Shown: positions 2,955-62,803, numbered from the stretch's first letter. The stretch: DNA of 64,000 bases from an uncultured Clostridia bacterium (GCA_945482995.1 CALYRM010000002.1:11355-75354), one strand, 5' to 3'. Notes: generated by a model from the letters alone, not told the origin. Program-made: numbers and translations.

Positions 2955-3012
2955 ATATGCAATTTGACAGCCGTCAGAATGTCATCCTTCGACTTCGTTC
3001 AGGATGACGATT
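2955..3012. repeat. single copy of the GTCATYC/GACAGC modular intergenic repeat
   Basis: gacagccgtcagaatgtcatccttcgacttcgttcaggatgac matches modules seen throughout the window. It sits between the riboswitch terminator and the RBS. Confidence 0.7.
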
Positions 3013-8610: not shown

Positions 8611-8740
8611 TTGATTTTTCCTTTATTTTACTAGGCACATACAGGCATAGATTATAGATTAATTGCACGTTAATAAAATCACCTGTACTTTATGTATAGT
8701 ATCCGTTCAATCGTTTGTTTTAATTCATTATGGAGTTAGA

Positions 8741-8790
8741 GTCTTTGACTTCGTTACACTACGCTTAAGAATGACGTTATATATTCGCAG
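8741..8790. repeat. single copy of the modular intergenic repeat
   Basis: gagtctttgacttcgttacactacgcttaagaatgac, the same module as at 18793-18830, 52795-52835 and 63925-63965. Confidence 0.65.
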
Positions 8791-15270: not shown

Positions 15271-15298
15271 TCATCTGCAAACTATTGCAGATTTCATT

Positions 15299-18792: not shown

Positions 18793-19100
18793 AACAAGGA
18801 TTAGATTCTTCGACTGCGCTTAAGAATGACAAAGCGGATGAGATTTCTCCACTTCGGTCGAAATGACGATTAGTTGTAATGGCTGTACACTTGCCTTGCA
18901 ATGAATCAGTGCTAGTAGTGAGATTCCTCCACGTTGGTCGGAATGACAAACAAGGATAAGGTCCCTCGACTACGCTTTCAGGATGACAGCCCTGCTGTCA
19001 ATTCACCTTCGACTTCGTTTCACTACACTTAAGAATGACAATTGCTATGGCTCAAAATGACATAATGACTCAAAATGACATTTTAGCTCAAAATGATAAA
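18793..19100. repeat. mosaic array of the modular repeat plus a CTCAAAATGA micro-tandem
   Basis: Successive ...aagaatgac / ...gaaatgac / ...ggaatgac / ...aggatgacagccctgctgtc modules, then gctcaaaatgac repeated 3-4 times. Confidence 0.8.
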
Positions 19101-30919: not shown

Positions 30920-31015
30920 AACCGTCATTCTAAGCGGAGTGCAACGTAGTCGAAAATGACAAGTTGTGAAATAGCGTAATATAGGCAATATTTTTAGAAC
31001 AACGCTTAAGGATGA
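30920..31015. repeat. copies of the modular intergenic repeat
   Basis: gtcattctaagcggagtgcaacgtagtcgaaaatgac ... cgcttaaggatgac. Confidence 0.6.
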
Positions 31016-32454: not shown

Positions 32455-32610
32455 CGTTCGCCATATCGACCATCAAAATCGTCATTCCGACCAACGTGGA
32501 GGGTGAATTGACAGCAGGGCTGTCATCCTGAAAGCGTTGTTCGAGGGACCTCATTAGCACCGACTTATTTCAAAGCTTTGTACAGTCACTAATTTGATAA
32601 TTGCACATTT
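32455..32610. repeat. composite copy of the modular repeat, including the GACAGC palindrome module and the terminal module
   Basis: gtcattccgaccaacgtggagggtgaattgacagcagggctgtcatcctgaaagcg...cctcattagcaccgactt... is the reverse complement of the arrangement at 46240-46320. Confidence 0.7.
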
Positions 32611-33518: not shown

Positions 33519-33597
33519 TATCTTTAAATTGTTTCCCCTACTGTCATCCCTAGTGCAGTTGGGAAATGACGAAAAATAGGATAGTTACACAATAGAT

Positions 33598-37017: not shown

Positions 37018-37683
37018 ATGGCAAAAAAAGAAGATTCTCCTATGACTCCCAAAAAACTGTTTATTATAATAGTTGAAATAATTTTGGTGTTTATGTTAGC
37101 ACTTGTTATAGTAGGCTTATTGCAACAGTTCGTAATAGCGCCCATCCGAGTTTCGGGTAGCAGTATGGCTCCTACAATAAGGGACAGTGGCGATAAAGTT
37201 TATGTATATAGGAAAGCAAAAGAATATAATATCGGAGATGTGATAGTATTTTATAAACCGATACAAGGCGAAAATGACGAAAGCCTTAACCCGTCGAGTA
37301 AAAAAACTTCTTTTACCGACTTTTTAAGAGCATTACCGATAGTTGGATCGAGAATTCACGCAAATGAAGCGGATAACGAAGAAACCGGCGGATATAAAGC
37401 TATAATCAAAAGAATAGTCGCTTGTCCCGGCGACACCGTGAGCTTCGTAAACGGTGAGCTTTATGTGAATGGGGACAAAGAAACACGCTTTGCTTATAAA
37501 TTTAATACAGTAGGCGTTGGTGATAACTATCAACACACCATGCAAAAAGACGAATATTTTGTTATGGGCGATAATAGAGGCGATAGTATAGATAGCGAAG
37601 ACTATGGACCGATACATCTAAATATGATTTACGGCAAAGCTGTGCTATTAATCACCGAAGGCGAACCAAAAGTAGACTTCTAA
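37018..37683 (+). CDS. lepB: signal peptidase I
   Basis: VSGSSMAPTI (catalytic Ser box), KRIVACPGD, GDNRGDSIDS. Confidence 0.88.
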   Translation: MAKKEDSPMTPKKLFIIIVEIILVFMLALVIVGLLQQFVIAPIRVSGSSMAPTIRDSGDKVYVYRKAKEYNIGDVIVFYKPIQGENDESLNPSSKKTSFTDFLRALPIVGSRIHANEADNEETGGYKAIIKRIVACPGDTVSFVNGELYVNGDKETRFAYKFNTVGVGDNYQHTMQKDEYFVMGDNRGDSIDSEDYGPIHLNMIYGKAVLLITEGEPKVDF

Positions 37684-37709
37684 AAAAGCCGACGATTGTC
37701 GGCTTTTTA
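37683..37709 (+). terminator. intrinsic terminator
   Basis: aaaaagccgac-gatt-gtcggcttttt. Confidence 0.7.
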
Positions 37710-37746
37710 AGATTAAGCATTAGTCGAAAGAGTTAAATATTGTTAC

Positions 37747-38215
37747 GTCATGTCGACCAACACAAATGTCATTCCGAGCGTAGTCGAGGAATCTAATCAA
37801 ATCGTCATTTCGACCGAAGTGGAGAAATCTCATCCTTGTCTGTCATTCCGAGCCATCCGCACCGTCATTCCGAGCCATCCGCACCGTCATGTCGACCGTA
37901 GTGGAGACATCTCATCCGCTTTGTCATTCCGAGCGTAGTCGAGGAATCTCATCCGCTTTCATCATTCATTACCATCCCACGTCATTCCGAGCGTAGTCGA
38001 GGAATCTCATCCGCTTTGTCATTTCGACCGAAGTGGAGAAATCTAATTAAATCGTCATTCCGAACGTAGTCGAGGAATCTCATCCTTGTTTGTCATTCCG
38101 ACCAACACAAATGTCATTTCGACCGAAGTGGAGAAATCTCATCCGCATCGTCATTCTTAAGCGTAAATCCCTTCACGTTGGTCGGGTTGACTTAGCCCAC
38201 CATACAAATCACGAA
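37747..38215 (+). repeat. mosaic tandem array of GTCATKYCGA modules (long ~37 bp and short ~22 bp)
   Basis: About 14 consecutive modules, for example gtcattccgagcgtagtcgaggaatctcatccgcttt, gtcatttcgaccgaagtggagaaatctcatcc and gtcattccgagccatccgcacc. Confidence 0.9.
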
Positions 38216-38327
38216 GTCCAAAATTGTGCTTTGCATAAGGCTTTGCCTTTTGCTACAACCTTTCAAATTGATGAATCCATTAGAATACAAAAGAGAAGAC
38301 GAATTGTTTGTTAAGAAACAAAAATTT

Positions 38328-39767
38328 ATGGTAACAAGACCGTTGCCAATTATTTTGCTTTTCTTTATTTTTGGCTTGATTGCTTGCTTTTTCTTGTATC
38401 AATACATCATTTGGATATATGTTGGTTTGGCATTGTTGGCGGTAGCAATGTTTTTATTGGGCGCATTCGACAAGAAGTTGCTATTTGCTTGTATTTTTAT
38501 TTTGGTTTTGTCACTTGAAGGGCTTTTATACCTATACTCTTTCAATAAAAAAGACTATTTAAAGGACGGATATTATTCGGGAGAAGCCTATGTCGAATCC
38601 GTACACAGTTCGGGAAAGGTTGTGCTTGAAAACGTTGTTTTAGAGGGTGAAAAACTTAATGGCAAGGTTATTGCAAATTATGCCGACGTAAAAGTGGGAG
38701 ATTACATCAAATTTGCGGGAACGTTATCTACATTTGATTACCACGAGTCATACGGATTGCACCGTATTGCCGGTGGCATATACTATGAAATGGACTTAAG
38801 TTTTTACCGTTTTGAATATACCACGTCCCCATCATTTAGAAATAGAATTATTTTCTTTGTTAAGGATGGTTTGACAAGAGCTGCAGGTGAAACCACCGCA
38901 GATTATTTGGCAAGTATATTGTTTGGTGAATCTGAGTATCTATCCTATGAAATGAAGTCAAGTTTTACTGCAATAGGTGCGGCTCACGTATTCGCAGTAT
39001 CGGGATTGCACATTGGCGTATTAAGCTCGGTTTTGTCATTTCTGTTGAGAAAGCTAAAGCTTTCTAATAATGCGATACCATTTGTAATGCTCCCCATTTT
39101 CGGCTTTTACGCATATCTTTGCGATTTTTCACCATCGGTACTTCGAGCCTCGATTATGTTTTTGACTGCAAGCTTTTTAACAAACGGCAAATTTTGTTCG
39201 GACAAGCCCTCAGTGCTGTGTTTTTCCGCCCTTATATCCTTGATTGCAAAGCCAATATGGATAGGTGATTTAAGTTTTGCTCTTAGCTATGGCGCAATAT
39301 TAGGGATTTATTTATTATATCCAATTATGAAAAAACCGTTTTCCGAACTAGGCAAATTAGGAAAGATAGGAGATGTATTGGCACTCAACCTTTCGGTTAC
39401 AATTTCGTTAATTCCCTTGAGCTGTCTATTCTTTTCAAGTTTTTCACCATTGGCAATGATAGCTAGTTTTTTGATAATACCAATAACGTCTGTCTTATAT
39501 GTTTTAACTCTAATATGCCTGCCACTTATTGCATTATCTTTTCTAATCAAACCGGTTGCGTTAGCTGCCAAATACTTAGTATTATTATCAAGCTTTATAT
39601 CCAAAACGATATCAAACGTCAACGTCCCCATAACTTTAAGAATAACGCCATATTCCCTGCTTTTTTGGTATGCAGGGCTATTTATATTGTCGGAATACAA
39701 TTCACTCTCCCCTCGCAAAAAAGGCTTGTTGGCAATTGGTTTTATCGGACTAACGTTTTTAATTTAA
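38328..39767 (+). CDS. comEC: ComEC/Rec2 family DNA internalisation channel protein (no beta-lactamase-like C-terminal domain evident)
   Basis: Polytopic; competence motif GAAHVFAVSGLHIGVL. The start is uncertain (38226, 38271 or 38328); upstream codons run out of the repeat array. Confidence 0.8.
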   Translation: MVTRPLPIILLFFIFGLIACFFLYQYIIWIYVGLALLAVAMFLLGAFDKKLLFACIFILVLSLEGLLYLYSFNKKDYLKDGYYSGEAYVESVHSSGKVVLENVVLEGEKLNGKVIANYADVKVGDYIKFAGTLSTFDYHESYGLHRIAGGIYYEMDLSFYRFEYTTSPSFRNRIIFFVKDGLTRAAGETTADYLASILFGESEYLSYEMKSSFTAIGAAHVFAVSGLHIGVLSSVLSFLLRKLKLSNNAIPFVMLPIFGFYAYLCDFSPSVLRASIMFLTASFLTNGKFCSDKPSVLCFSALISLIAKPIWIGDLSFALSYGAILGIYLLYPIMKKPFSELGKLGKIGDVLALNLSVTISLIPLSCLFFSSFSPLAMIASFLIIPITSVLYVLTLICLPLIALSFLIKPVALAAKYLVLLSSFISKTISNVNVPITLRITPYSLLFWYAGLFILSEYNSLSPRKKGLLAIGFIGLTFLI

Positions 39768-39773
39768 CTATAA

Positions 39774-40650
39774 TGTCATTTCGACCGAAGTGGAGAAATC
39801 TCATCCGCTTTGTCATTTCGACCGAAGTGGAGAAATCTAATCAAATCGTCATTCCGAGCCATCCAATTCGTCATTTCGACCGAAGTGGAGAAATCTCATC
39901 CTTGTTTGTCATTTCGACCGCAGTGGAGAAATCTCATCCTTGTTTGTCATTTCGACCGTAGTGGAGAAATCTCATCCGCTTTGTCATTCCGATCCATCCG
40001 CTTTGTCATTCCGATCCATCCAATTCGTCATTTCGACCGAAGTGGAGAAATCTAATCCTTGTTTGTCATTTCGACCGAAGTGGAGAAATCTCGTCCGCTT
40101 TGTCATTCCGATCCATCCAATTCGTCATTCCGAGCGAAGTCGAGGAATCTCATCCGCTTAGTCATTCCGAGCCATCCGTTTTGTCATTCTGACCAATACA
40201 AATGTCATTCCGAGCGCAGTCGAGGAATCTCATCCTTGTTCGTCATGTCGACCGAAGTGGAGAAATCTCCCTACTAGCACAAAAACCCTGTGAAACAGAC
40301 AAACAATCGTAATGTATAATTACACATTATTAAAAAGGTTCTATTTTTATTGAACGCTTAAGTTTTATTCACAAGAATGCTTTTGTACCCCATTTTAGAG
40401 ATCCCTCCACGTTGGTCGGGATGACTTAGCCCACCGTCATTCCGAGCCATCCAATTCGTCATTCCGAGCGAAGTGGAGAAATCTCATCCACATCGTCATT
40501 CTGAGCCATCCAATTCGTCATTCCGACCAACACAAACGTCATTTCGACCGAAGTGGAGAAATCTCATCCTTATTCCGTCATTCCGAGCAAAGTCGAGGAA
40601 TCTCATCCTTATTCCGTCATTCCGACCGAAGTCGAGGGATAACAAATTAC
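39774..40650 (+). repeat. two mosaic arrays of the same modules, separated by a ~95-bp element
   Basis: 16 modules are readable in 39774-40270 and about 8 more in 40383-40645. Inverted modules and a terminal module (ctccctactagcac) lie at the junctions. Confidence 0.9.
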
Positions 40651-40653
40651 AAT

Positions 40654-40701
40654 CAAAAAGTGGTCTGCCGTCGGGTTAACCCCAAAAACGTAGACCACTT
40701 A
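40654..40701 (-). terminator. compound hairpin with a T-run on the minus strand, downstream of the sipW operon
   Basis: aagtggtct...agaccactt outer stem with an inner GGGTTAACCC palindrome. The minus strand continues with tttttg. Confidence 0.45.
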
Positions 40702-40907
40702 TTTAGTTTTTTGGTTTTGTTTAGATTCTTAAGCGGAAGTTCCGCGTTCCCCTTACGTTTTGGAACGATAAAAAAACTCTTGTTTTATCGGTTAAAATCA
40801 AAACTTTTTTGTAAAATACAAAAGTTTTGTTACTTCTTAATAAAAACCTTAGTTATTTGACGCATTTTGCCTCAATAAGCGAGTGTATTGGAAGATTTTG
40901 CCTAAGT

Positions 40908-41408
40908 TTACGTCATTGAAACTACTGTTTGTCCCCAGCTATAATTACTAGCATTTACACAAACATATATTAACTCACCTGATGTAGGAGCAACCAAATT
41001 ATCACCAGATGCTGTAACACCACCTTCGCCATCTCCATATTTGTCTACTGCTGCGATTCCATTGCTCTTTTCAATCTGATACCATGTTATATCTCCAACT
41101 CCATTGTACCTAACGCACTTGAATTGCGTACCGGCAGGAATTTCACCATACCATTCAGCCAAATTGCCAGAGCCTTGAGGTAGAGTAGTCATTTTAATTG
41201 AATTTTCATTCACAGACCAACCACCAAGCTGTTCACCTACAATATAATAACCACCGACTTCAGGTTCCCATGAAATTATCGGCTCGGCACTAAAACTAAT
41301 TTCAAGTCGATCAGCGTTTACAACATAAAGAGCATACGCACCGCTAATTAGCGAAACGCAAATCATAAAAGTAAATATTAGGATAAATGCTTTTATAGTT
41401 TTCTTCAT
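40908..41408 (-). CDS. secreted protein with a SipW-type-looking signal peptide and a CBM-like beta-sandwich domain
   Basis: N-terminus MKKTIKAFILIFTFMICVSLISGAYALY. The domain W.PEVGGYYIVGE..GGW...FKCV..W...YVCVN..W is shared with the 42540..43400 protein. Confidence 0.55.
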   Translation of the reverse strand: MKKTIKAFILIFTFMICVSLISGAYALYVVNADRLEISFSAEPIISWEPEVGGYYIVGEQLGGWSVNENSIKMTTLPQGSGNLAEWYGEIPAGTQFKCVRYNGVGDITWYQIEKSNGIAAVDKYGDGEGGVTASGDNLVAPTSGELIYVCVNASNYSWGQTVVSMT

Positions 41409-41446
41409 TGCTCTTTATATTTTGTCCTTTATTGCAGTTATTGTTT

Positions 41447-41780
41447 TGATTAGATTCTTCGACAAGCTCAGAATGACATTAGTAGGTTAGTCGTTCTCTA
41501 CCGATTTTGTTGACTCTTCCGCTGCGTTATCGTCACAAGGATGAGATTCTTCGACAAGCTCAGAATGACTATGCAGATGAGATTTCTCCACTTCGGTCGA
41601 AATGACGATTTGATTAGATTCTTCGACAGGCTCAGAATGACAAGGCGGATTAGATTCCTCGACTTCGCTCGGAATGACATTTGGATTTAGATCCTTACGA
41701 CTACGCTTCGCTTCGCTCAGGATGACATTATGGCTCGGAATGACGATGTGGCGAGATTCTTCGGCTTCGCTCAAACTGAC
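41447..41780 (-). repeat. array of modular repeats overlapping the 3' end of sipW
   Basis: gattcttcgacaagctcagaatgac, gatttctccacttcggtcgaaatgac, gattcctcgacttcgctcggaatgac, and others. Confidence 0.85.
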
Positions 41781-42464
41781 GGTATTTGATTGGTCGGGTT
41801 CTTTTTGTGCTTCGTTTTGTTTCTTATTGGAAGTCTTAGCGGACTCGTTCTCGGGTTTCTTTTTAAGGTAATTCAATATTAGCGAAGTAATGGCTATAAT
41901 TGTCAAGCATGCAATCAATGCAATTATTCCATAACTGCTTTTGAAAAATTTGACTACTACTCCAAACTGTCCCATTGAGAAACAATAAATACCTGTGATA
42001 TCCTCTATTTTTTTTGGTGAATCACTTTTGGGTGCAGCGTCACCACGAGTAACGTACAATTTTTCGCCTGTAACTGCATCATACTTTATTTCAACCACAC
42101 GATGAATGACCGTTTCGTTTCCTATCTTAAAGGTTACTATATCATATACGTCAGGCTCTTCGCCGTCCTTTAACCGTCTTGTAAACACAAAATCATTGAT
42201 TTTAAATTGTTCGTCGTGTCCCTCTAAAAATTCCTTGTAATCTTCATATTTAAAGGACATACTTCCCGATTTAACAATCATTCCTCTATAACCAAAGAAC
42301 GGATAAATATCCTTTCCCGAAATCTTTTCTACCAAGGAAAAAATCAATACGGCAATAAAGATAACCATAATGAGATAGAATATTACATTTAGTATAATTC
42401 TACCCACACTTTTTTTCTTTTTATTTTCCGATTTTTTATTCCCGTATTGACTTTGTTTTTCCAT
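41487..42464 (-). CDS. sipW: SipW-type (archaeal/ER-type) signal peptidase I with a repeat-encoded C-terminal tail
   Basis: N-terminal TM; KSGSMSF (Ser box), VIHRVV (His box), TRGDAAPKSD; a second TM. The last ~90 aa are translated from repeat modules. Confidence 0.7.
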   Translation of the reverse strand: MEKQSQYGNKKSENKKKKSVGRIILNVIFYLIMVIFIAVLIFSLVEKISGKDIYPFFGYRGMIVKSGSMSFKYEDYKEFLEGHDEQFKINDFVFTRRLKDGEEPDVYDIVTFKIGNETVIHRVVEIKYDAVTGEKLYVTRGDAAPKSDSPKKIEDITGIYCFSMGQFGVVVKFFKSSYGIIALIACLTIIAITSLILNYLKKKPENESAKTSNKKQNEAQKEPDQSNTVSLSEAEESRHIVIPSHNVILSEAKRSRKDLNPNVIPSEVEESNPPCHSEPVEESNQIVISTEVEKSHLHSHSELVEESHPCDDNAAEESTKSVEND

Positions 42465-44172: not shown

Positions 44173-44832
44173 TCAAAGCGTTAGTCCGAGATATTTTTCA
44201 AAATGCTCAAAAAATTCATATACTTTGGTAGCAGGGTCATTGTTTGCTGGAGTTTTTTTGTCATCAAGTAGCGATTTAGCATTTTCAACTGCTTTTAGTA
44301 GATTACCGCCTTTTGCTAAAACTTTATCAAAAATATCTTTATCATTTTTTTCATAATGCTCCTGCAAATATTTTTTAAGTTTTTGTATGTACGCTTTCCG
44401 ACTTATTGAGGCTGTTAAATTAATAAAATTCAATAAGAGCCACAACTCGAAACATTGATTTGACCATAGTGCATGATATTTCGTTTGTTCGTTAGTCGTA
44501 TTCTGAATCTTATTTATCGCATTATTAAAATTTTCATGCGAAAAATCATCTTTATCAAACAGGACCCACACATGGTCTATTTTGCAGTTATTTTTCTTTT
44601 CGATAGTTCGCGTCTTAACTAAAACATTGTTTGCCATAGTCATTGGATCGACAGCATCTACTTCGATATAAAATTTTAAAAGCATATTTTTTTCTTGGTT
44701 TTTGAAAAATTTTACAACCCCGTCAAAATAGTTCTTTTCTGTTTCTGCACCACAACAGACAATAAGATGACTTGTTGCAATAGGAATTTTTGCAGAGCTT
44801 CTGTCTCCGTACCAATTCTTTCCCTTGCCCAT
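44173..44832 (-). CDS. RloB-like protein (AbiLii-like, TOPRIM-related)
   Basis: HLIVCCGAETEKNYF matches the RloB signature ivcEGekTEpnYF. Starts 3 nt after the AAA gene's stop. Confidence 0.7.
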   Translation of the reverse strand: MGKGKNWYGDRSSAKIPIATSHLIVCCGAETEKNYFDGVVKFFKNQEKNMLLKFYIEVDAVDPMTMANNVLVKTRTIEKKNNCKIDHVWVLFDKDDFSHENFNNAINKIQNTTNEQTKYHALWSNQCFELWLLLNFINLTASISRKAYIQKLKKYLQEHYEKNDKDIFDKVLAKGGNLLKAVENAKSLLDDKKTPANNDPATKVYEFFEHFEKYLGLTL

Positions 44833-44835
44833 AAC

Positions 44836-46077
44836 CTAAATCTCCCAATGCTTGATTTTAATTAAATAGGGGTCAGCACCATAGCGACCTTCAATATATT
44901 GTTTGTTGTACGCAGCATCATTACGCACAAGTTCACCAGACTCTGTACGAATATCTATAAGCGAATAAAAAACAGAATACTCTTTTTCACACATTGCCAT
45001 AAACCAAATTTCATCACGTCTAAACACATCTCTTGTCATAGTCGTTAAATCGTGAGAGGTAAAAATTAGTTGTGCGCCTTTTGTATTTGTAACCTTGTTT
45101 GTAAATAACTCTATGATAAACTTTAACAATTGCGGGTGCATTTTTGCGTCAAGTTCATCTATTATAACTGTTCGACCTTCAGCCAAGGCAACAACAAATA
45201 CCGGTAGAAGTCCGAAAACCTTTTTTGTACCATTTGACTCTTCACGTAAATCTAACTCATATGATAAACCGCCTACTTTATGTTTTGTTGTTATTTTAAT
45301 TGCACTCTGGTTAGGTTTTACGTCAACCTTTTCCGCACGATAAGACACTATATTTAAGTCCATACGACGTAACAAATCAAGCGTCATCTCCTTTATTTTA
45401 TTTGAGCGTGCATCATTTTCCAATTCTAATTGCAAAATAAAACTGAGCAATAATTCATCTTGAAAGGGTACATTGTAATCTACGCAAAATGTAGACATAA
45501 ACCAATGAATAAGCTTTGAGATTTGTTCAACCTTATAAACCATTCCTATCCAAGACAAAACCGGCATACCATCTGCGATATTTCCGGCGAGCTTAACTTC
45601 ACTTTTTATACTATCGCCTAAAACAATGTCACTGCCTTGTCGAGTAAAGATTTCCGTTATTCTCTGTTTACCAACTTTTCTGATATATAGCGATTCATCA
45701 ACGATTTTGTTATTTAATATAGTAATATAGTATTTATATTCTATTTCGTCAATTTCAACGAAAATTTCAAATTCGGTTGGCATATTAGCACACTCTGAAT
45801 CGAATTTAAAAGGAACGATGTTAACACCTACAACAGGTTCAATCTGATTCATTTCACCAACAACATTAAAATAACGAGATATCAAAACTTTTAATGCGAA
45901 AAGAGCTTTTAATAATGTACTTTTTCCACCACCATTAGGTCCGTAAATAGCGGCAATAGGCAACAATCTATTATCTATAAGAGATTCTTTATGTTCCGAT
46001 AAAGCAATCGAGCGCATATCAAGTGTTGCTTTCTCTTTAATACACTGGAAATTTGTTACAGAAAATTGTACAAGCAT
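44836..46077 (-). CDS. AAA_21/COG1106-type ATPase (AbiLi/RloA-like)
   Basis: N-terminal FSVTNFQCIK, Walker A GPNGGGKST, Walker B VIIDELDAKMHP, FTSHD. Confidence 0.75.
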   Translation of the reverse strand: MLVQFSVTNFQCIKEKATLDMRSIALSEHKESLIDNRLLPIAAIYGPNGGGKSTLLKALFALKVLISRYFNVVGEMNQIEPVVGVNIVPFKFDSECANMPTEFEIFVEIDEIEYKYYITILNNKIVDESLYIRKVGKQRITEIFTRQGSDIVLGDSIKSEVKLAGNIADGMPVLSWIGMVYKVEQISKLIHWFMSTFCVDYNVPFQDELLLSFILQLELENDARSNKIKEMTLDLLRRMDLNIVSYRAEKVDVKPNQSAIKITTKHKVGGLSYELDLREESNGTKKVFGLLPVFVVALAEGRTVIIDELDAKMHPQLLKFIIELFTNKVTNTKGAQLIFTSHDLTTMTRDVFRRDEIWFMAMCEKEYSVFYSLIDIRTESGELVRNDAAYNKQYIEGRYGADPYLIKIKHWEI

Positions 46078-46239: not shown

Positions 46240-46660
46240 CAAAGAGTCGGTGCTAATGAGGTCCCTCGAACAACGCTTTCAGGATGACAGCAGAGCTGTC
46301 AATTCACCCTCCACGTTGGTCGGAATGACAAAGTGGATGAGATTCCTCGACTTCGTTGCACTTCGCTCGGAATGACATTTTTGGTCGGAATGACGAATTG
46401 GATGGCTCGGAATGACATTTTTGGTCGGAATGACAAAGCGGATGAGATGTCTCGACTACGCTCGACATGACAAAGCGGATGAGATGTCTCGACTTCGTTG
46501 CACAACGCTTAAGAATGACAATTAGTTGTAATGGCTGTATATCTGCTTCGCAAGAAGTCGGTGCTAGTAGGGAGATGTCTCGACTACGCTCGACATGACG
46601 GAACAAGGATAGTTCCTTTGGCTGAGCTCAGGATGACAGCCCTACAGCTGTCACTTCACC
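46240..46660 (-). repeat. composite repeat array: modules, GACAGC palindromes and terminal modules
   Basis: Runs from gagtcggtgctaatgaggtccctcgaac...aggatgacagcagagctgtcaattcaccc to ttagttgtaatggctgtatatctgc...gtgctagtagggag and ggatgacagccctacagctgtcacttcacc. Confidence 0.85.
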
Positions 46661-48049: not shown

Positions 48050-48169
48050 AAAAATATTTATGCCGTTGGTTGATGATTAATTCGTCATATATTGCAAATT
48101 ACACATTAGAATAAGGTTCTTTTTTTTAAACGCTTGATATTCATTCACAAAAAAATTACACCCCATTTT

Positions 48170-48262
48170 GGAGATTCCTCGACTGCGCTCGGAATGACAT
48201 TTCCGCAGCGGAATGACATTTCCACGACGGGATGAAATTTCCACGGCAGGATGACGAAAAAA
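48170..48262. repeat. short array of repeat modules
   Basis: ggagattcctcgactgcgctcggaatgacatttccgcagcggaatgacatttccacgacgggatgaaatttccacggcaggatgac. Confidence 0.75.
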
Positions 48263-52723: not shown

Positions 52724-52794
52724 TGGCTAAAATGTGAGACTTTTTAGCCTAATTTGCAACGTTTAATTGTGGATTTTTTTCTTCATTTATCATT

Positions 52795-52895
52795 ATTTTT
52801 CGACTCCGTTACACTACGCTCCGAATGACATTTATAGGTTCATAATGACTTTTGCATTCAAGATGACAGCCCAATGGCTGTCACTTTTATATACG
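52795..52895. repeat. repeat modules including a GACAGC palindrome
   Basis: tttttcgactccgttacactacgctccgaatgac ... agatgacagcccaatggctgtcac. Confidence 0.7.
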
Positions 52896-53030: not shown

Positions 53031-56000
53031 ATGTCAAGAGTTAAAGAAGGAAGATCTAAAAGAATGCCTTGGTGCGTTTCCTGTCTTATTGCTTGTCTTG
53101 TAATTGTAGTAGTATTTGTTGTTGGAATAATTATTGCAGCAAACGTTACATTTAATAAATTTGTCAGTCCTATGATTGGCGGAATCAAATTGGGAGAATG
53201 CACTAAGCTTTTAACAGGCGCATTGAATTCTAATCGTGATAAAATAGTAACAAACGAATATACAGCTGATGATTTAGATGATTTTTATTTCACTCTAAAC
53301 TCAATGCTTTATCAAAAAGAATTGACCGACGAAGAATATCAGGCAAGATATGACGCTTTGTCGGAAGAAGAAAAAGCCGAATATCCAACTGTAGAAGCAT
53401 ACAAAGAAGCGCACCCTTATCGTATCGATATTGATTCGCTTATCTCTTCTATTAAATTAGACGAGTTGATTGGTGGAAAACAAGAGACACCCACTGATGG
53501 CGAAGTTAGCGCAGCAGGTGAAGATGAAAACAATTCTTCAAGCGGTGGTTCTAATGTCGATAACACCGATAATGAGCAACTACAAGAGTTATTTAAGCAG
53601 TTAGCTTTTGATTTTGGCGTATTAAAAAAATATCCATACACAAATACCGAAGAAGATTTATCCTACACCACATTCCAAATTACAGGCAACCAAATGGCAG
53701 CGGTTGTCAACGAAATTGCGTCTGTTGTGATGAAAAGCATTAATTTAGGAAACACAATGCCTGAATTAGAGGGCGTGGATTTTTCTAAATATGCAAGTGT
53801 TCCACAAATAACAGCAAGCGACGTACAATATGAAGATTCAAATGGAAACACACTAACCAAGCCGATGCTCAGTATCGTGGTAGAGTTAAAAACTCGAAAA
53901 CTTATCGAAGAAGCATTTGTACCAATGCTCGAAAAGCAAGGTGTTCCTAAGTTTGCGTTAAACGTTATAAAAATCTTATTGCCAAAGAATTTCTTTGTTT
54001 CACTTGAAACATATCCGACCGATAAGGACAGCGACGTAAATATTAAAATAAACAATATGAATGACAAAGCGTGCGAAAGCTTGAAAACTATTGTCAATTC
54101 CTTAGCGGAAAAGTTTAATTTCAGTTTATTCCCAAAGGATGGCGAGGGGCAACCTGACCAAGATGCAAGCACCGATCAAACACAAGAAAAAACAACTATT
54201 TTCAATGAAATCAACACAATGGTTGTCAACGTTTTCACAAAAATTAACGAGTTTGTTCCCGTTCAATTTGTAAGCAATGAACAAGGTAGTGTTTCACTTA
54301 GAGTTGCTCACATTCAAGGCTTACTTAAAGTCATGGGATTATTTGACGAAAACGACCTTGAAAACAGCGTTACACCGCATATGTTTTTGACAACTCTACG
54401 TTGTCTATTCGACGAGGCAACACCTGAAAACAACAAAGCGGAATTAGCCGATCTTTATACGCAGTTAGATGCTAAGTACGGAATCGATCAAAGCTATTGG
54501 AATGACAAGAGTCTATTAGACGCCGAAGCTTTGGAAAATATAACCGAAGCTATCAACATAACCGAGGTTGAATTTAAAACAAACGAGGATATGAGGGTAA
54601 ATTTAAAAGACGGCGAGCTTGCAACCCTTATTGACGAAGCTATTAAAAAGGGTACTTTTGGCAGTGGCAACGAAACACCTCTATCTATGGCAGGTGAAGG
54701 CGGAGATAATCAGCTACTTGATATGGTAAACTTTGAAGCCGTCAATATTAAGTACATAGAAAGCGTTAATCAAAACAATTATTCCTATATTGACGAGAGT
54801 GGCGTCGAAAGCGAAAAAATCAACGCCTTGATTAAAAAGTATACATTTAAAGCCACTGTAAGCGTATCCATTGCAGATTTATTAACGTCGCAAACAGGTG
54901 AGGGTGAAGAAGCAAGCGGTGTTCAACCTATCATAGATTCTTTAAAATCCGCTTTACCCGAAAAACTTTGTTTGGCGTTAGTTTTACATATCGACGACGT
55001 ATATAATACCCAAGACGGCAAATTATTCAATAGAGTTATCGCAGGCGTTGCAGGCGACACAACCTTTAAGATTAACAAGTTTGACGAAAACTACTCTTCA
55101 AAAGTTTTGGATATGATTCAAAAACTTGTAAATAAGTTCTCATCAAACGGCTCAGGCGAAACGCAAGAAACCGAAAATTCTACTTTCGATATTTCTTCCA
55201 TTTCTACTCAAATAAGCGACGCTCTATCAACCACGCTAAAACAATTAAAGGACAGCTTATATTGTGATTTATTGATTGAAGACAAATCACTTATACTACC
55301 TAGCGTTTACGAATTGGTATACGGAATGGGTAAAAAACAAGTAGAAATAAACGTAAATTTAACTGAGGACGATTTAATCTCTATTGCGGAAATCAAGGAT
55401 TTATTCGTTCAAGTTTACAACACCGACTTCTACATTGTAGAAAACGACGGCGTTACACCATCTAACCCCGAGGATTACGATAAAATTCTTTATAGATATA
55501 ATCAAGATGCAGGCGATACTTTCTTGAGTATATTATCAAGCAAATACTATATGTCATCACCAATTACAACCGACGAGATTTTAGGTGAAAAAGGGTTGAC
55601 TATATCAACCAATCGCTTGAACTTTAAGGGTGAAAACGGTCTCTATTACGACCAAACCACAACCGACTCTTTGGATGTATTCGTTTCCGGCGACGCTTTA
55701 GCTTCTCTTATTGCCAATAGCGGTAAACTTAATTCCTTAACTGAGACCGCCAATAACGATTTTATATCGAATTTGTCTATAATCACCGCCGAATTTGATT
55801 GGCAAGATAGCGAATTGTATTTGAATTTCGATTTTGAAGCAAACATTAATCCGTCCGTAAGCAGTGAAACCGAGGGTATAAATATAAGCGCCTTTATTCC
55901 GAACAATGCTTTCATTACCGCTAAAATCGCAATGAAAACCGATGATGAAGCTAATTTATACTCAACCGATTTATTACTTAATAACAGTTCGATAAACAAT

Positions 56001-59000
56001 CTCGTCAAACTTTTGAATCTATTTTCAAATGAAAAAATAGATAACTCTACAATTACAAACGAGATTAAAACTTCTATATCCGACGTATTCGATACAATTA
56101 ACGAAAACGTTAACTTAAAATACAACAATGCTAATGAGCAAGAGGCTTTGGCGTTTAAAAACATTTTCAACACCATAAACAAGCTCTCTCATAAAAATGA
56201 CTTAGAATATGTAAGCAGTGATGAGGATGACGAAAAATTGAGATCATTACTCAAAGAATTCGGCAGAGCTCCCAAGTTTACAACAAACGAAGAAAATGTT
56301 ATTAATAACGTTACCGATGTTCGTTATTTTTCTAATTCCGTAGACGATATCTATAAGATTTCCGACTCTGACAGTTTCTTTGAAGAATTAAACAAAAACT
56401 TTTATATTTCAGACGATAATCTTATCACCGTTGATAGCTTGTCGACCCTAACTACGGTTGACTCGGATTTTATCGATTTTAATAAACTTTATACCGACGT
56501 TAGAACCATTGACGAAATAGAAACAAAGCTCACGTCCAATAGGTTCACTTCCTTAGCAAACAAGCTTATGGGAACAGTTAATCTCGAAGATGGTATAGGC
56601 GAAGCTAAAATCATTCAATCGAGAATTAAAAACGACGGCGTAACCAAGTCTCTTGACGCTGTGGCTTACGTTACTTTCTCTGCGTTAGATCCGTCTGTTG
56701 TAGCATTACTTCCTTCTCACGTATTTATTACCGCTACCGTGGACTTAACTAGCGTTGATGAATTGGGGAACAAAACGTATCAAACCGATTTATTCATTAA
56801 CGACTTTACATCTGAAGAAACTAACGATTTATTCAATAGAATTTCATTGCTTGAATCTTCCTTGAGTCTTAACTTCAATATCTCATTAGATACACTTAAA
56901 ACAACTATAAGAGATGAAATTAAGGGTATTTTCGATGGCGACATGACTATGTTTGGCGAACCTGTAATCGAGAACGGATTTATTGATATTCCAAATATCT
57001 TCGATTATATCACCGGCGGTACGATTGAAGGCTCGGTTTACAATCAAAATAAACCGCTATTTGAGAAATCAAAGCTTTCTCTATCCGGCGACAACTACGG
57101 TATTAACGAGGACGGCAAAGCAGGATATTACGACAACGGAAACTTCATAGTTTTGGGCGACGCTCAAAAAGTGAACAATCTTTGGGGTTACTATGATGGT
57201 GAAAACTTTGTTACTATACAAACCACTCCCGAACAGTTAATGCACAACCTAAGAGTATTCGGCAATAAGCCTACAGAAGAAACGATTAAGATTACTTCGA
57301 CAGATACACTTGGCTATAGTATATTGGGATATAATAACACCGTTGAAACTAAATCATACCAAGCAGGTAAAAATATAACCGTTTATGGTAATATAGGTAT
57401 CAATCTACAAAACTTTGAAGACGGATTCTATTTCTACGATCAAGAAAAAGGCTACTACTTCGATACACAAGCGCATTTCTTCGATATGGTAAACACAAAT
57501 TACTATATTACGGGAGAGGGAAAAATAAACGCAAATACAGTCAATTCGGGTACGTTCGTTATTGGAAATGATCTCTTTAATTTCTATGAGTTATATAACG
57601 ATAAGAGAAGCTTTGAAGATACCAAAATCAAAGTAAACGGCAATACATTTGCAGCCTTAGCCGAAGAATTCTATGAAGGCGGAATAAAGCTTTCCGAAAC
57701 AAACTCGGCAAAAATTATTCAAATGCACCTTTACACCAAGGATAAAACCGAAAATTCCGATCACTTAATCGACAATTATTCAACCTTAAAGACGATTGTA
57801 AGAGTTAGCTTAACCGATTCTACCGATAAGTCGAATGTTCTCCCCGAATACTTGTATATGGTTTGTTACACCATAATCGATCCAGATGCAGGCACTCGAA
57901 GATTTGATTCGGAATTCATTATCAATAACTTTGGCTTCGATTATGTTGACGTTAAAGATTATTCGGGCATTTACGGACAAATTGAAGAAACTCAAAACTT
58001 TATAGATAGACTTAATACCCTAAAGGAATCATTTGGTTTAACGTTTACTTTCGAATTGTCCGATATCAAGAATACAATCAAAGAAACCTTTAGAAGTATT
58101 TTTGAAGATAAACTTTCGACTTTCGGCGATATTAAGTATGAAAACGATTCGTTTATCGTTCCTAATATTTTCCAATACTTAACCGACGGTCAATTAGTCG
58201 GTAGCAGTGAAAGTTTGAACTACGACACTACAATAAAAATGAAGGAATTTGACGGTATTACTCTAACCGAACCCGAGGTATTAAGAAACAGACTTCAAGA
58301 ATTAGGTACAGGAGTTAAGTATACCGAATCGATAACCGCTTGGAATGGTGATATCTACAATGATAACCGCTTCACTGAAAGTGATTTAGACAACTTCTTT
58401 ACCGATATGCAAGCTTATTATTTCTTGAATAAAAAGCCAACGTCGGATAACCTAATGGGCGGTAGCTTCTTTACCGATTTAACAGGCGAAAGTTTTGAAC
58501 AAACTTTCAACTTAAAAGGCTTAACTACAAGCGAAATTGGTATTAGAGGCGAATACATTTCAAAGGGCTTATTTAACTATACGGGATCTCAACAATCGCT
58601 AAAACTATCCGACAAGGCATTAGCAGGCTTAATCAACTCTCAAAACGCTATTAATATTGATAGTATCGGTAGCGTAGGCAGTGTGAAAATAACCTCTATC
58701 AAGCTCGAGTACATAAGCGAAAGCTCGATAAGTATCGAGATTACAATCAAGGTTACAACACAAGAACAGGCTGGTAAAGTAAACGCAATGCCTGAGGTGT
58801 TCTATTTGACGACAAAAACTACAAGAAACGTTTTATCGGGAGTTCCTTCTTATAGTACAACTATTGCAGTCAACGCATTCAACCCTGAAGAATTGGATAA
58901 CCTATTGGCTAACCTCAACCATATCGAAGAAAATACAAGTTTCGGTATCAAAAACAATCTTGATACGGAGTCATTAAAAACTTCGGTAGAGAACGCTATA

Positions 59001-59795
59001 AAAGAATTGTTTGACGGCAAACTAAAAGATTATTCAACCGGCTTCGGTAGCTACGAAAATGCGGAAAACGGTATCGGTTATATACAATTCCCGAATATCT
59101 ACTCCAAAATTTACGAAACTACGGGCGCAACTAAGGGTAACGAGGTTGATTTACAAAACGTTATCGTCAAGCTAAATAACAAAAATCAAACTCTTGAAAA
59201 GAATAAGTACGATCCTTCGTCAGACAATATCTCCATATCTTATCCGCTACCAAAGTATTTGACAGATAGACAATTTGCTTACTTGCTAAACGGCATATTT
59301 AAGGTAGATAGTAGTTATAGCTATATTGCGGTAGAACAAGTAGTTATTTTCAAAGGTGAAAGCGATAAATATGCAGAATTTGAAAAATTAATTCAAAACG
59401 TCAATCCAAGCTTCACGTTCGATCCTATTGCAGGCGGTTACTACTTTATTACGGTATCAATTGACACCTCTAATTTGAGCTGTAATATGGCAATAGCCCC
59501 CGAAAAGATTTATTTGACTTTAGTAGTCGATAACGAGGGTAACCTTGTAAAATACACAAATGATGACGGTGTGTTGACAAGTACAAAATTCGCTCAAGAT
59601 TTCACAACAAACGAATTGGATTTATTCCTAAGCATTTTCACAGATAACAATAACAAGCTAGATTTCGACCAAAAGCTAGAAGACAACATCAAGAGCGTAA
59701 TGACATACGTAACAGACAAGTCTCTACATCAAAATGCTAACCTTAATGAGGCTGATTTCAATGGCTACTACGGATACGTAGGCACGATGGAATAA
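53031..59795 (+). CDS. 2254-aa protein with an N-terminal signal anchor and at least 7 divergent ~110-aa internal repeats; function unknown
   Basis: RBS aaggagg. One TM (WCVSCLIACLVIVVVFVVGIIIAANV). Recurrent pattern ...ALAxLI...I(T/Q)...P(E)xxY(L/I)T...YxTxLxINxF...L, plus recurring (F/I)PNIFxY motifs. Confidence 0.7.
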   Translation: MSRVKEGRSKRMPWCVSCLIACLVIVVVFVVGIIIAANVTFNKFVSPMIGGIKLGECTKLLTGALNSNRDKIVTNEYTADDLDDFYFTLNSMLYQKELTDEEYQARYDALSEEEKAEYPTVEAYKEAHPYRIDIDSLISSIKLDELIGGKQETPTDGEVSAAGEDENNSSSGGSNVDNTDNEQLQELFKQLAFDFGVLKKYPYTNTEEDLSYTTFQITGNQMAAVVNEIASVVMKSINLGNTMPELEGVDFSKYASVPQITASDVQYEDSNGNTLTKPMLSIVVELKTRKLIEEAFVPMLEKQGVPKFALNVIKILLPKNFFVSLETYPTDKDSDVNIKINNMNDKACESLKTIVNSLAEKFNFSLFPKDGEGQPDQDASTDQTQEKTTIFNEINTMVVNVFTKINEFVPVQFVSNEQGSVSLRVAHIQGLLKVMGLFDENDLENSVTPHMFLTTLRCLFDEATPENNKAELADLYTQLDAKYGIDQSYWNDKSLLDAEALENITEAINITEVEFKTNEDMRVNLKDGELATLIDEAIKKGTFGSGNETPLSMAGEGGDNQLLDMVNFEAVNIKYIESVNQNNYSYIDESGVESEKINALIKKYTFKATVSVSIADLLTSQTGEGEEASGVQPIIDSLKSALPEKLCLALVLHIDDVYNTQDGKLFNRVIAGVAGDTTFKINKFDENYSSKVLDMIQKLVNKFSSNGSGETQETENSTFDISSISTQISDALSTTLKQLKDSLYCDLLIEDKSLILPSVYELVYGMGKKQVEINVNLTEDDLISIAEIKDLFVQVYNTDFYIVENDGVTPSNPEDYDKILYRYNQDAGDTFLSILSSKYYMSSPITTDEILGEKGLTISTNRLNFKGENGLYYDQTTTDSLDVFVSGDALASLIANSGKLNSLTETANNDFISNLSIITAEFDWQDSELYLNFDFEANINPSVSSETEGINISAFIPNNAFITAKIAMKTDDEANLYSTDLLLNNSSINNLVKLLNLFSNEKIDNSTITNEIKTSISDVFDTINENVNLKYNNANEQEALAFKNIFNTINKLSHKNDLEYVSSDEDDEKLRSLLKEFGRAPKFTTNEENVINNVTDVRYFSNSVDDIYKISDSDSFFEELNKNFYISDDNLITVDSLSTLTTVDSDFIDFNKLYTDVRTIDEIETKLTSNRFTSLANKLMGTVNLEDGIGEAKIIQSRIKNDGVTKSLDAVAYVTFSALDPSVVALLPSHVFITATVDLTSVDELGNKTYQTDLFINDFTSEETNDLFNRISLLESSLSLNFNISLDTLKTTIRDEIKGIFDGDMTMFGEPVIENGFIDIPNIFDYITGGTIEGSVYNQNKPLFEKSKLSLSGDNYGINEDGKAGYYDNGNFIVLGDAQKVNNLWGYYDGENFVTIQTTPEQLMHNLRVFGNKPTEETIKITSTDTLGYSILGYNNTVETKSYQAGKNITVYGNIGINLQNFEDGFYFYDQEKGYYFDTQAHFFDMVNTNYYITGEGKINANTVNSGTFVIGNDLFNFYELYNDKRSFEDTKIKVNGNTFAALAEEFYEGGIKLSETNSAKIIQMHLYTKDKTENSDHLIDNYSTLKTIVRVSLTDSTDKSNVLPEYLYMVCYTIIDPDAGTRRFDSEFIINNFGFDYVDVKDYSGIYGQIEETQNFIDRLNTLKESFGLTFTFELSDIKNTIKETFRSIFEDKLSTFGDIKYENDSFIVPNIFQYLTDGQLVGSSESLNYDTTIKMKEFDGITLTEPEVLRNRLQELGTGVKYTESITAWNGDIYNDNRFTESDLDNFFTDMQAYYFLNKKPTSDNLMGGSFFTDLTGESFEQTFNLKGLTTSEIGIRGEYISKGLFNYTGSQQSLKLSDKALAGLINSQNAINIDSIGSVGSVKITSIKLEYISESSISIEITIKVTTQEQAGKVNAMPEVFYLTTKTTRNVLSGVPSYSTTIAVNAFNPEELDNLLANLNHIEENTSFGIKNNLDTESLKTSVENAIKELFDGKLKDYSTGFGSYENAENGIGYIQFPNIYSKIYETTGATKGNEVDLQNVIVKLNNKNQTLEKNKYDPSSDNISISYPLPKYLTDRQFAYLLNGIFKVDSSYSYIAVEQVVIFKGESDKYAEFEKLIQNVNPSFTFDPIAGGYYFITVSIDTSNLSCNMAIAPEKIYLTLVVDNEGNLVKYTNDDGVLTSTKFAQDFTTNELDLFLSIFTDNNNKLDFDQKLEDNIKSVMTYVTDKSLHQNANLNEADFNGYYGYVGTME

Positions 59796-59925: not shown

Positions 59926-61278
59926 ATGATAAGCTTACAAGATACAAATAGAATATGGGCAAAAATAAGCGATAAACTTTCGATATCGATATCTATGGTC
60001 GCTTACTGCGTATATTTTAAAAATATAATTCCTTATACAGTCAGAGATACTACTTTAATTCTTTTGGCTCCTTTGGAATCGCATAGAAACGTAATTAACA
60101 ATAATTACCGTCAAAGTCTTCTAACGGCATTCAAGGCTTGCGACGCACCTTTTGATGATTTTATGATTATTCTCGATTCCGAAAAGGATTCCTTTGCTCC
60201 ATTGCAAGATAAAGAAGCGGCGGCGGAAACTGTGGAATTAAGCGAATCTATGACATTTATCAAGGAATACACATTCCAATCCTTTGTTATTGGCGATAGC
60301 AACAAATTGGCAGCAATGGCTGCTTTGGCAGTTGCGGACAAACCGGGTAGCATATATAATCCTTTATTTATATATAGTCGTCCGGGACTAGGTAAAACCC
60401 ACCTTTTGAACGCAATCGGTAACTTTATAAAAGATTGCAGAAAGGACTTGGAAATAATGTACGTTACCGCCGAAAATTTTACAAACGACTATATTTACAG
60501 CATTAGGAATAATAAAAACGCAGACTTTATGAAATCCTTTAATGAAAAATATAGAGGTAAAGACGTATTAATGATTGACGATATACAATTTTTGGAAAAA
60601 GCCGAAAAAACTCAAGAGGCTCTTTTCCATATATTCAACGATCTTTACGCTAAAAATAAGCAAATTATCATTTCTTCAGATAGACCTATTAAGAATTTGA
60701 CGTTCTTAGACGAAAGGTTAGCATCTCGCTTTGCCAGCGGTATCACTGTAGATATTCAACCGCCGTCATTCGAGGATAGAGTTGCGATCCTTTTACATAA
60801 ATCTCACCAATACAATTTCAATATCAGCGAAAAAGTACTTTACTATTTGGCAGATTTGGAAAAATCAAATATAAGAGTGCTTGAAGGTATGCTCAAAACC
60901 ATAGGTATTTACAGCAAACTCAAAGAACCGGTCGACTCTATTGATTTTGTAAACGAGGCACTAAGGACAGCCACAACAACCGAAAACAACGTTACTATCG
61001 ATTCCATTACAAAAGCTACCGCCGACTACTTCAACGTTAAAATGGAAGATATCTTAGGATCTCGCCGAACCAAAGATGTGGTTCTTCCAAGACAGTTCGC
61101 TATATATCTAGTATCGGTTATGCTTCCTGATAGGCCATTGTCAAATATGGTCGAATATTTTAAGAGAGATCATAGCACAATTATTAGTGCAAGAGACAAA
61201 ATCGGTAGCAAATACGAGAGCGACGAACATGTACGGACAATGCTTGACGATATTAAGAATATAGTTTTAAATAAATAA
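59926..61278 (+). CDS. dnaA: chromosomal replication initiator DnaA
   Basis: GLGKTHLL Walker A, LMIDDIQFL, sensor motifs, and a C-terminal DNA-binding domain (RQFAIYL...DHSTI). Confidence 0.95.
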   Translation: MISLQDTNRIWAKISDKLSISISMVAYCVYFKNIIPYTVRDTTLILLAPLESHRNVINNNYRQSLLTAFKACDAPFDDFMIILDSEKDSFAPLQDKEAAAETVELSESMTFIKEYTFQSFVIGDSNKLAAMAALAVADKPGSIYNPLFIYSRPGLGKTHLLNAIGNFIKDCRKDLEIMYVTAENFTNDYIYSIRNNKNADFMKSFNEKYRGKDVLMIDDIQFLEKAEKTQEALFHIFNDLYAKNKQIIISSDRPIKNLTFLDERLASRFASGITVDIQPPSFEDRVAILLHKSHQYNFNISEKVLYYLADLEKSNIRVLEGMLKTIGIYSKLKEPVDSIDFVNEALRTATTTENNVTIDSITKATADYFNVKMEDILGSRRTKDVVLPRQFAIYLVSVMLPDRPLSNMVEYFKRDHSTIISARDKIGSKYESDEHVRTMLDDIKNIVLNK

Positions 61279-61325
61279 CAGCATAGTCAATTCATGCAAC
61301 AGTTAGGTTTCAATTCATTAATAAA

Positions 61326-61530
61326 TGTTGATAATTTACTGATAACTTTGCGACTTATCAACATTCATCCATAGTGGTTATCCACTATACAAAACGTGAT
61401 TGTAACACTATATATTGTGGTTAAATCGTAAATATATCGGTAAATATCGGCATACAAACCATTTATCCACTTTTCAACATCCGTTATTATTTATTATTAC
61501 GATTAAATTAGAACATAAATATAAACTAAA
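61326..61530 (+). promoter_or_regulatory. oriC: DnaA-box cluster plus an AT-rich unwinding region
   Basis: Five boxes, each with 1 mismatch to TTATCCACA: tgttgataa 61326-34, ttatcaaca 61355-63, ttatccact 61378-86, tgtggttaa 61416-24, ttatccact 61463-71. AT-rich stretch at 61483-61530. Confidence 0.7.
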
Positions 61531-61543
61531 GGAGCGTTTGCTT

Positions 61544-62650: not shown

Positions 62651-62803
62651 ATGATTAGGGTTTATCTCTACTCATTTAGTAAATCCTTGTTTGTCAGTTT
62701 TGAGCGTAGTCGAAGAGTATCTATACAATCACCGACTATTTTTTAAAGCAAGCAAAATATATGCCAATTACAGCTTTGCACATTGCACGTTGTAGGTTAT
62801 TAT

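Follow-up and report, generated by a model that had tools for sequence, protein, structure and literature searches.

Arrays of a hairpin repeat with the signature of CGTC-tagged REPs and NTS/SRM bracket a comEC-like gene in an uncultured Clostridia bacterium

The stretch of DNA analysed here (64 kb, hereafter the window) belongs to a metagenomic contig of 83.8 kb from an uncultured Clostridia bacterium and contains a comEC-like gene (38250 to 39767, plus strand; 505 amino acids) with arrays of a short hairpin repeat on both sides. Array A (39775 to 40300, plus strand) starts 7 nt past the stop codon of this gene and comprises 16 modules arranged head-to-tail, including a 119-bp higher-order duplication with 93% matches. 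It is followed by block B (40395 to 40670, plus strand), which opens with an inverted unit on the minus strand (40401 to 40425) and continues with seven modules on the plus strand, followed at about 40655 to 40710 by a GC-rich hairpin and its T run. The upstream array (37747 to 38225, plus strand) is placed between a terminator-like hairpin, which comes after an S26 signal-peptidase gene, and the start of the comEC-like gene. It has 13 modules and ends in a half unit and then a decayed inverted unit (about 38166 to 38201). A preliminary description of this DNA had assigned block B and the upstream array the orientation of comEC, which is correct except for the inverted unit that opens block B.

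Every module in the window begins with GTCAT, with C or T just before it. The longer head motif GTCATTYCGA had been attributed to all 16 modules of array A; the head-to-tail string of 16 is confirmed, but the motif is exact at the start of 14 of them, with one-base departures in the other two (GTCATTCTGA at 40183 and GTCATGTCGA at 40242). The window has 42 copies of GTCATTYCGA where 0.38 would be expected, a count reached by none of 100 shuffles, and head motifs number 72 versus 3.6 in shuffles. The modules abut without spacers, and neighbouring units in the window are nearly all head-to-tail. Long modules are 36 to 39 nt. Short modules have the previously reported size of 22 nt and correspond to a long module from which 15 nt (GAAGTCGAGGAATCT), rather than a central 16 bp, are missing. 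A separate third kind of 21 nt (GTCATTCCGACCAACACAAAT) had been overlooked when two kinds were distinguished, and all three kinds are present in the upstream array. Both truncated kinds retain the 12-nt 5' half of the long module and diverge from it at or just past the hairpin loop. A profile of the full unit gave 35 matches in the window, all of them intergenic, with intergenic DNA making up 8.8 of the 64 kb. A coding repeat was rejected, as the periods of 21, 22, and 36 to 38 nt are mostly not multiples of 3 and the frame drifts.

The full module can be written as YGTC + ATTYC-GA-S-C(GNA)G-T-S'-GA-GRAAT + C. The outer stem of its hairpin has five pairs (A-T, T-A, T-A, Y-R, and C-G), and the inner hairpin consists of tandem G.A/A.G, the S-S' pair, and a C-G pair closing a GNA triloop, together with a bulged T; triloop and bulge can alternatively be read as a loop of 5 to 6 nt. 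The hairpin is followed by C and then, in the lineage of the window, by TCATCC and a variable tail of 5 to 6 nt. Long modules covary, ATTTC...GAAAT occurring with GAC...GTGGA and ATTCC...GGAAT with GAG...GTCGA, and a rarer form has ATGTC...GACAT. A scan of one genome per species, with no constraint placed on the Y/R and S/S' positions of the pattern, returned at least 119 loci. The Y..R positions are paired in 122 of 124 units (Fisher 4e-33) and so are the S..S' positions (122 of 124; Fisher 2e-21), the two pairs vary independently, and the loop is G-N-A with any N. In a formal count over 46 distinct units, 89.4% of cells were paired versus 76.9% in shuffled data (0 of 500 shuffles), double-change cells numbered 43 versus 17.8, and every slid register was lower. 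The flanking bases are constrained as well, with Y preceding GTC in 211 of 220 distinct units and C following the palindrome in 177 of 220. ATCT stands at the unit end in all 26 full window units of the profile, whose selection pattern required it, and the remaining long modules likewise end in ATCT, save three array-end units. Base-pair covariation is strong, and the hairpin is kept by selection.

Judged by its signature, the repeat matches a described superfamily that includes CGTC-tagged REPs, the dRS3/NTS repeats of Neisseria, and Ssn-related motifs (SRM). CGTC-tagged REPs have an unpaired CGTC or TGTC tag, a stem of 8 to 9 bp whose first pairs are A-T and T-A, a loop of 4 to 5 nt, and the 3-nt tail CCA; they occur in several phyla without a dedicated transposase or enzyme, and the families CGTC-1 to -4 include dRS3 and Rickettsia RPE-4/-6 (Di Nocera 2013, BMC Genomics 14:522, PMC3733652). 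Neisseria dRS3, itself a CGTC-tagged REP, is clustered in mosaic intergenic regions (PMC3733652). The window modules share with these REPs the CGTC/TGTC tag, the A-T then T-A start of the stem, the small loop, and the short tail, and likewise occur in several phyla with no transposase adjacent to them. They differ in having five pairs, tandem G.A, and one or two further pairs in place of 8 to 9 perfect pairs, and CTCATCC in place of CCA.

NTS (CGTCATTCCCGCGMAVGCGGGAATCYRG) is an oriented repeat of Neisseria with relatives in many phyla, the SRM (Chenal 2025, Nat Commun 16:2388, PMC11893778). NTS/SRM flank ssnA, whose product SsnA is a 94-amino-acid, single-domain GIY-YIG nuclease that binds the motif as single-stranded DNA only, on one strand, and cuts a few nucleotides upstream; it binds neither RNA nor the reverse strand (PMC11893778). 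Binding depends critically on the C that follows the palindrome, and cutting on the 3 nt upstream, and SsnA lowers transformation about 5-fold for NTS-bearing DNA (PMC11893778). The characterised Ssn enzymes are from Neisseria and Wolbachia, most reported homologs are in Gram-negatives, and among genomes with over 200 SRMs, 81% have an Ssn homolog (PMC11893778). The window units have an unpaired (C/T)GTC 5' of the palindrome and a C directly 3' of it, as SRM do, and they too are high-copy, intergenic, and clustered around genes. YGTC-ATTCC...GGAAT-C is common to NTS and the window modules, whereas the inner stem is GA-S-C(GNA)G-T-S'-GA in the window and CGCG(MAV)GCG in NTS. The Clostridia host, the long head-to-tail arrays, and the half modules also set the window apart from NTS/SRM.

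Likeness to other repeat systems is more partial. NIMEs (dRS3 plus RS elements) are also mosaic intergenic hairpin arrays beside variable genes or recombination sites, but their RS segments are 50 to 150 bp, whereas the window has abutting modules with 5- to 6-nt tails and a period of 36 to 38 or 21 to 22 nt. REP/BIME/REPIN-RAYT systems resemble the window repeat as short extragenic hairpins, in clustering, in lineage-specific expansion, and probably in recognition as single-stranded DNA by a single-copy domesticated nuclease; they differ in their GTAG tag, their HUH tyrosine transposase, and a replicating unit that is an inverted doublet. The preliminary description had likened the arrays to pneumococcal BOX elements. 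BOX elements are built of boxA-boxB(n)-boxC modules of about 59, 45, and 50 bp. The likeness holds for the architecture, that is, an intergenic position, a variable-copy interior, and conserved ends, and breaks down for the module sizes (21, 22, and 36 to 39 nt, abutting without spacers) and for the sequence signature, which is that of CGTC/NTS repeats. Membership of the BOX family, or a spacer-less CRISPR-like array, would explain the modular layout with variable internal copies and conserved ends, but we regard it as extremely improbable, also in view of the lack of cas genes in the window and the contig extensions. A CRISPR array proper was rejected, as there are no spacers.

The first reading of the sequence had not connected it to a named family, and that claim of novelty falls, because the signature is that of CGTC-tagged REPs (PMC3733652) and NTS/SRM (PMC11893778). 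These matches came from the literature; Rfam gave no match for the whole window at gathering thresholds, nor for 37600 to 41900 at E<=1. A literature search by sequence string returned only an unrelated microRNA paper, and the repeat had no blastn match among plasmids. The family is therefore known, and what is new here is the Clostridia host, a subtype outside the published SRM search string (see below), head-to-tail arrays that far exceed any in about 1 Mb of other loci, and the half modules.

The exact 27-nt pattern of the repeat occurs at no fewer than 119 loci in at least 11 phyla: Bacteroidota, Verrucomicrobiota, Planctomycetota, Kiritimatiellia, Bacillota (Clostridia, Christensenellaceae, and Dialister), Chloroflexota, Patescibacteria, Acidobacteriota, Gemmatimonadota, Pseudomonadota, and Spirochaetota. 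In these other genomes the units typically form an inverted pair 20 to 100 nt apart, with 52 inverted versus 10 same-strand neighbours among the 119 loci. Units consisting of the 5' half, upstream of a full unit, are also found in other phyla (for example, at loci L040, L052, and L013). At three loci (L002, L052, and L013), GIY-YIG genes of about 95 codons are flanked by the same hairpin, and this hairpin-GIY-YIG-hairpin order is the published NTS-ssnA-NTS layout. A metagenome scan with a lineage-specific 32-mer yielded 22 single-unit loci in other organisms, with no GIY-YIG gene. A phage feature was rejected, as only four viral-contig loci matched.

The same hairpin was also seen at one conserved spot, between the same divergent gene pair, in several metagenome contigs (L141, L143, L144, L148, L149, L155, L157, and L159), in the context …gcaaagataat…tttt(t/c)-GTCAT…CATCC-aaaaaa…t(a/c)tttgca…. 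This copy looks fixed and possibly co-opted, and our impression is that its flanks are Bacteroidales-like.

Within the lineage of the window, the arrays vary among strains. An assembly from a second sample (L133) is 100% identical over 12.7 kb, all three arrays included, so an artefact of one particular assembly is excluded. Three strains with about 98.5 to 99% identity have arrays at the same sites, with modules differing in number and order. On the downstream side of comEC the window has 23 modules, strain L135 has 12, and strain L138 has 9; on the upstream side the window and L135 both have 13, in a different order. The terminal modules that border unique DNA are conserved between strains. 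The preliminary description's layout of variable internal modules and conserved ends is thus borne out. The array near the M18 aminopeptidase gene also differs between strains, one short module being extra and one unit recombinant. The source of a related strain was pig gut. GyrB places the host of the window among uncultured Clostridia, its homologs being labelled only "Clostridia bacterium" and "Candidatus Faecicola", at 69% identity. In many short-read assemblies comEC is stranded alone on a contig of about 1.7 kb because the arrays break short-read assemblies of the host species, which is a practical effect of the repeat.

Comparison with a more distant relative (L126; RelA 85% identical) places the arrays in a rearranged segment. 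Relative to L126, comEC has moved, two blocks are inverted, and six genes are extra (those for a 166-amino-acid protein, a SipW-like peptidase, 286- and 168-amino-acid proteins, RloB, and an AAA_21 ATPase). Units or arrays are present at all five breakpoints (33.5, 37.7, 39.8 to 40.7, 46.3, and 48.2 kb). Because all five carry units and unrelated genes are flanked too, with 7 to 10 head motifs per array at 18.8, 41.5, and 46.3 kb, the bracketing of comEC is explained better as a by-product of a rearranged, insertion-prone segment than by a comEC-specific role. This fits an older view of dRS3 repeats as recombination sites (PMC11893778). Further, four relatives with ComEC 52 to 57% identical (L125 to L128) have no modules near comEC, and the comEC-specific role raised in the preliminary description is accordingly not supported. 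The RloB-like and AAA_21 ATPase pair (44173 to 46077, minus strand) is part of the segment that L126 lacks, with the array at 46.3 kb as a boundary; judged by its two Pfam domains, the pair looks like an anti-phage defence system.

The comEC-like product itself has the Competence domain (PF03772) only, without the DUF4131 and metallo-beta-lactamase domains of longer ComEC homologs. Its best NCBIfam match is the MAG0480 family ComEC-like protein, under the cut-off, and no further competence gene is present in the window. These features bear on the idea, also put forward at first reading, that the repeat is a DNA uptake sequence (DUS), a genome-specific motif read by the competence machinery and enriched around comEC. 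The position of the two largest arrays, on either side of the comEC-like gene, speaks for such a role. However, the motif is spread over many phyla rather than genome-specific, its units are 100% intergenic whereas Neisseria DUS are often inside genes (PMC11893778), and the related NTS lowers transformation through SsnA (PMC11893778). Together with the reduced domain content, the lack of other competence genes in the window, and the module-free surroundings of comEC in relatives, this makes an uptake role very improbable. Of the proposed link to competence, what stands is the published experimental connection of the repeat family to natural transformation, and on this ground the adjacency to comEC merits a genome-wide look.

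We consider it reasonably likely, taken as a whole, that the arrays are clusters of NTS/SRM hairpins at which nuclease-linked breakage and recombination occur, with the bracketing of comEC reflecting a rearranged segment. By analogy with the Neisseria and Wolbachia members, the GTCAT strand would fold when single-stranded and would be bound in this folded state by an Ssn-type GIY-YIG nuclease whose gene lies elsewhere in the genome. A cut a few nucleotides upstream would fall in the variable 5- to 6-nt tail between modules. The arrays may thereby act as sites of single-stranded DNA breakage and recombination, so that homologous exchange of the flanked genes is limited or redirected. Unequal recombination between modules, or slippage, is the probable way in which arrays grow and are reshuffled, and breaks at or just past the hairpin loop would give rise to the 5'-half modules.

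Several results weigh against this interpretation. Neither the window nor the 84-kb contig as a whole yielded a GIY-YIG, RAYT, or transposase gene. The coincidence of units with breakpoints is post hoc and comes from one relative only. Long head-to-tail arrays are atypical, the largest cluster elsewhere being 4 units in about 1 Mb; inverted dimers predominate among CGTC REPs and head-to-tail dimers are "negligible" (PMC3733652), whereas same-orientation arrays dominate the window. The tracking of gene orientation by the units (see below) is not predicted by a pure single-stranded DNA nuclease model. In nearest-neighbour folds the hairpin was not favoured over shuffles (z of -2.2 to +0.4), and in RNA and DNA folds alike the CATCC tail paired preferentially with the 3' arm instead; the 22-nt short and 21-nt modules are unable to fold. 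We set the folding energies aside because the models score GNA triloops and tandem G.A pairs poorly. Finally, the published SRM string (HGTCWYN(0-2)YYVSBRHN(0-5)WNVSBRGN(0-2)RNCYNB) has no match in the window, since both types of long module fail it while the NTS consensus passes. The same string also has no match throughout L002, L052, and L013, the loci with GIY-YIG genes. Because the window and these three loci all give no matches, we regard the GA/GA hairpin as a subtype outside the published string; YGTCATNNCGASCGNAGYSGAGNNATC is an example of a pattern that admits it.

Absence of an enzyme on the contig would be expected if the repeat were an orphan, a selfish or neutral REP/MITE-like element in decay that has no partner nuclease, changes by slippage and unequal crossing-over only, and leaves the flanked genes unaffected. 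The many decayed units, the 119-bp higher-order duplication in array A, and the gain, loss, and recombination of modules between strains all agree with such an element, and no dedicated enzyme was found for CGTC REPs (PMC3733652). In contrast, most long modules, and the units of at least 11 phyla, retain the stem pairs, YGTC, and C, which argues for a conserved partner, and the high frequency of Ssn homologs in SRM-rich genomes (PMC11893778) points the same way. We therefore see the orphan element as possible but on balance unlikely.

The orientation of the units suggests a different alternative. Units between co-directional genes have GTCAT on the sense strand at all five well-kept sites and at 9 of 10 sites judged by eye; 52790 to 52871 is the sole co-directional gene pair with units antisense to the genes. 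Unit orientation flips with gene blocks, although the window lies nearly all on one side of dnaA. These patterns would fit an RNA-level element, in which arrays in the untranslated regions of comEC and its neighbours supply hairpins as mRNA stabilisers, attenuators, or insulators, a role proposed for classical REPs. So would the start of array A so close to the comEC-like stop codon, the sole terminator-like hairpin noticed downstream being the one after block B. However, the repeat lacks an Rfam match even at E<=1, RNA fold energies are no better than those of shuffles for most modules, wobble pairs show no excess on the sense strand, the short and 21-nt modules do not fold, and the characterised partner protein does not bind RNA (PMC11893778). 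On this evidence an RNA-level role appears rather improbable. The genes dnaA, dnaN, and recF are at the right end of the window (59926 to 63871), gyrB and gyrA follow on the contig (L164, 14206 to 18734), and the segment is presumed to be the chromosomal origin region. GC skew in the window tracks gene orientation without a clean switch, and the origin was not located by it.

Under the favoured reading of nuclease-linked hairpin clusters, a more specific version can be formulated, in which an unrecognised SRM subtype, with its GA/GA loop and GNA triloop, has been amplified into head-to-tail "fences". Nuclease-linked breaks, both at the hairpin loop and in the tail between modules, would make and remodel these fences, which would be boundaries of single-stranded DNA restriction and recombination partitioning a variable comEC-RloB/AAA_21 island, with comEC shielded from, or mobilised by, transformation-driven exchange. 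We hold this version to be improbable.

The published survey may have a gap, in that the SRM string misses a subtype present in at least 11 phyla and adjoining small GIY-YIG genes. The reach of Ssn/SRM systems, and of single-stranded DNA specificities usable as tools, may thus exceed the published extent. The extreme array formation in this lineage (13 to 23 modules, half modules, and strain-shuffled order) could show how repeats are amplified and how they shape gene order.

Outside the comEC region, the preliminary description had listed 13 further sites with modules, and a unit or decayed unit is present at each of them. Its statement that units occur in nearly every intergenic region was too broad; by eye, about 17 of 31 intergenic regions have a unit or remnant, and 8 of 31 have well-kept full hairpins. 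Three further arrays are on the minus strand. The first, with 10 to 12 units (46245 to 46640), lies between the AAA_21 gene and an M1-peptidase gene. The second, with 5 to 7 units and an RS-like spacer (18793 to 19096), is upstream of the M18 aminopeptidase gene, and the unique RS-like spacers are partly common to these two arrays (18798 to 19007 versus 46440 to 46660). The third has 7 to 8 units (41447 to 41790) and overlaps the 3' end of the SipW-like signal-peptidase open reading frame (ORF; 41487 to 42464, minus strand). The last 100 or so codons of this ORF are translated array (…VIPSHNVILSEAKRS…VISTEVEKSH…), and the C-terminus therefore changes with the array; as called, the gene has 325, 298, and 365 codons in three strains.

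A composite two-hairpin element (32481 to 32565, plus strand) is 96.5% identical to 46329 to 46245. This 85-bp composite of two hairpin units and a fixed spacer is found at 32481 to 32565, 46245 to 46329, and 18959 to 19013 (93 to 96% identity), where it is terminal in two arrays and solitary once, behaving like an end module. One full unit and three 19-nt mini-modules (for example, GTCATTCCGCTGCGGAAAT) are present at 48165 to 48260 on the minus strand. The mini-modules (48190 to 48255) are near-perfect short palindromes and are nearer to Neisseria dRS3 than the main module is. Single units comprise a palindromic one without assigned strand (GTCATCCT...AGGATGAC; 2981 to 3008), a decayed one (8740 to 8775, minus strand), one with an inverted end, GTCAT...ATGAC (30924 to 30960, plus strand), and a small one at the junction of ParB and a 252-amino-acid gene (33543 to 33570, plus strand). 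Up to three decayed units ending in ATGAC are present at 52790 to 52871 on the minus strand.

The M18 aminopeptidase gene, as annotated, contains in its 5' end an 18-nt tandem repeat, ATGGCTCAAAATGACATA (19047 to 19096), that resembles short modules in decay. The length of this ORF (453, 483, 487, or 500 codons) varies with the assembly and with the start codon chosen. No Pfam domain was found in the ORFs of 2254 (53031 to 59795, plus strand), 1237 (10450 to 14163, minus strand), 429 (7321 to 8610, minus strand), and 450 amino acids (9113 to 10465, minus strand). A related strain has an insertion of about 60 to 64 nt that is not module-like (L129, 4566 to 4625, versus 15271 to 15274 of the window), placed between a Na/Pi-cotransporter gene and an 894-amino-acid gene. 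A class I lysyl-tRNA synthetase (tRNA-synt_1f) with a fused tRNA_bind domain, which is unusual for Bacillota, is encoded on the contig extension (L162, 14582 to 16606).

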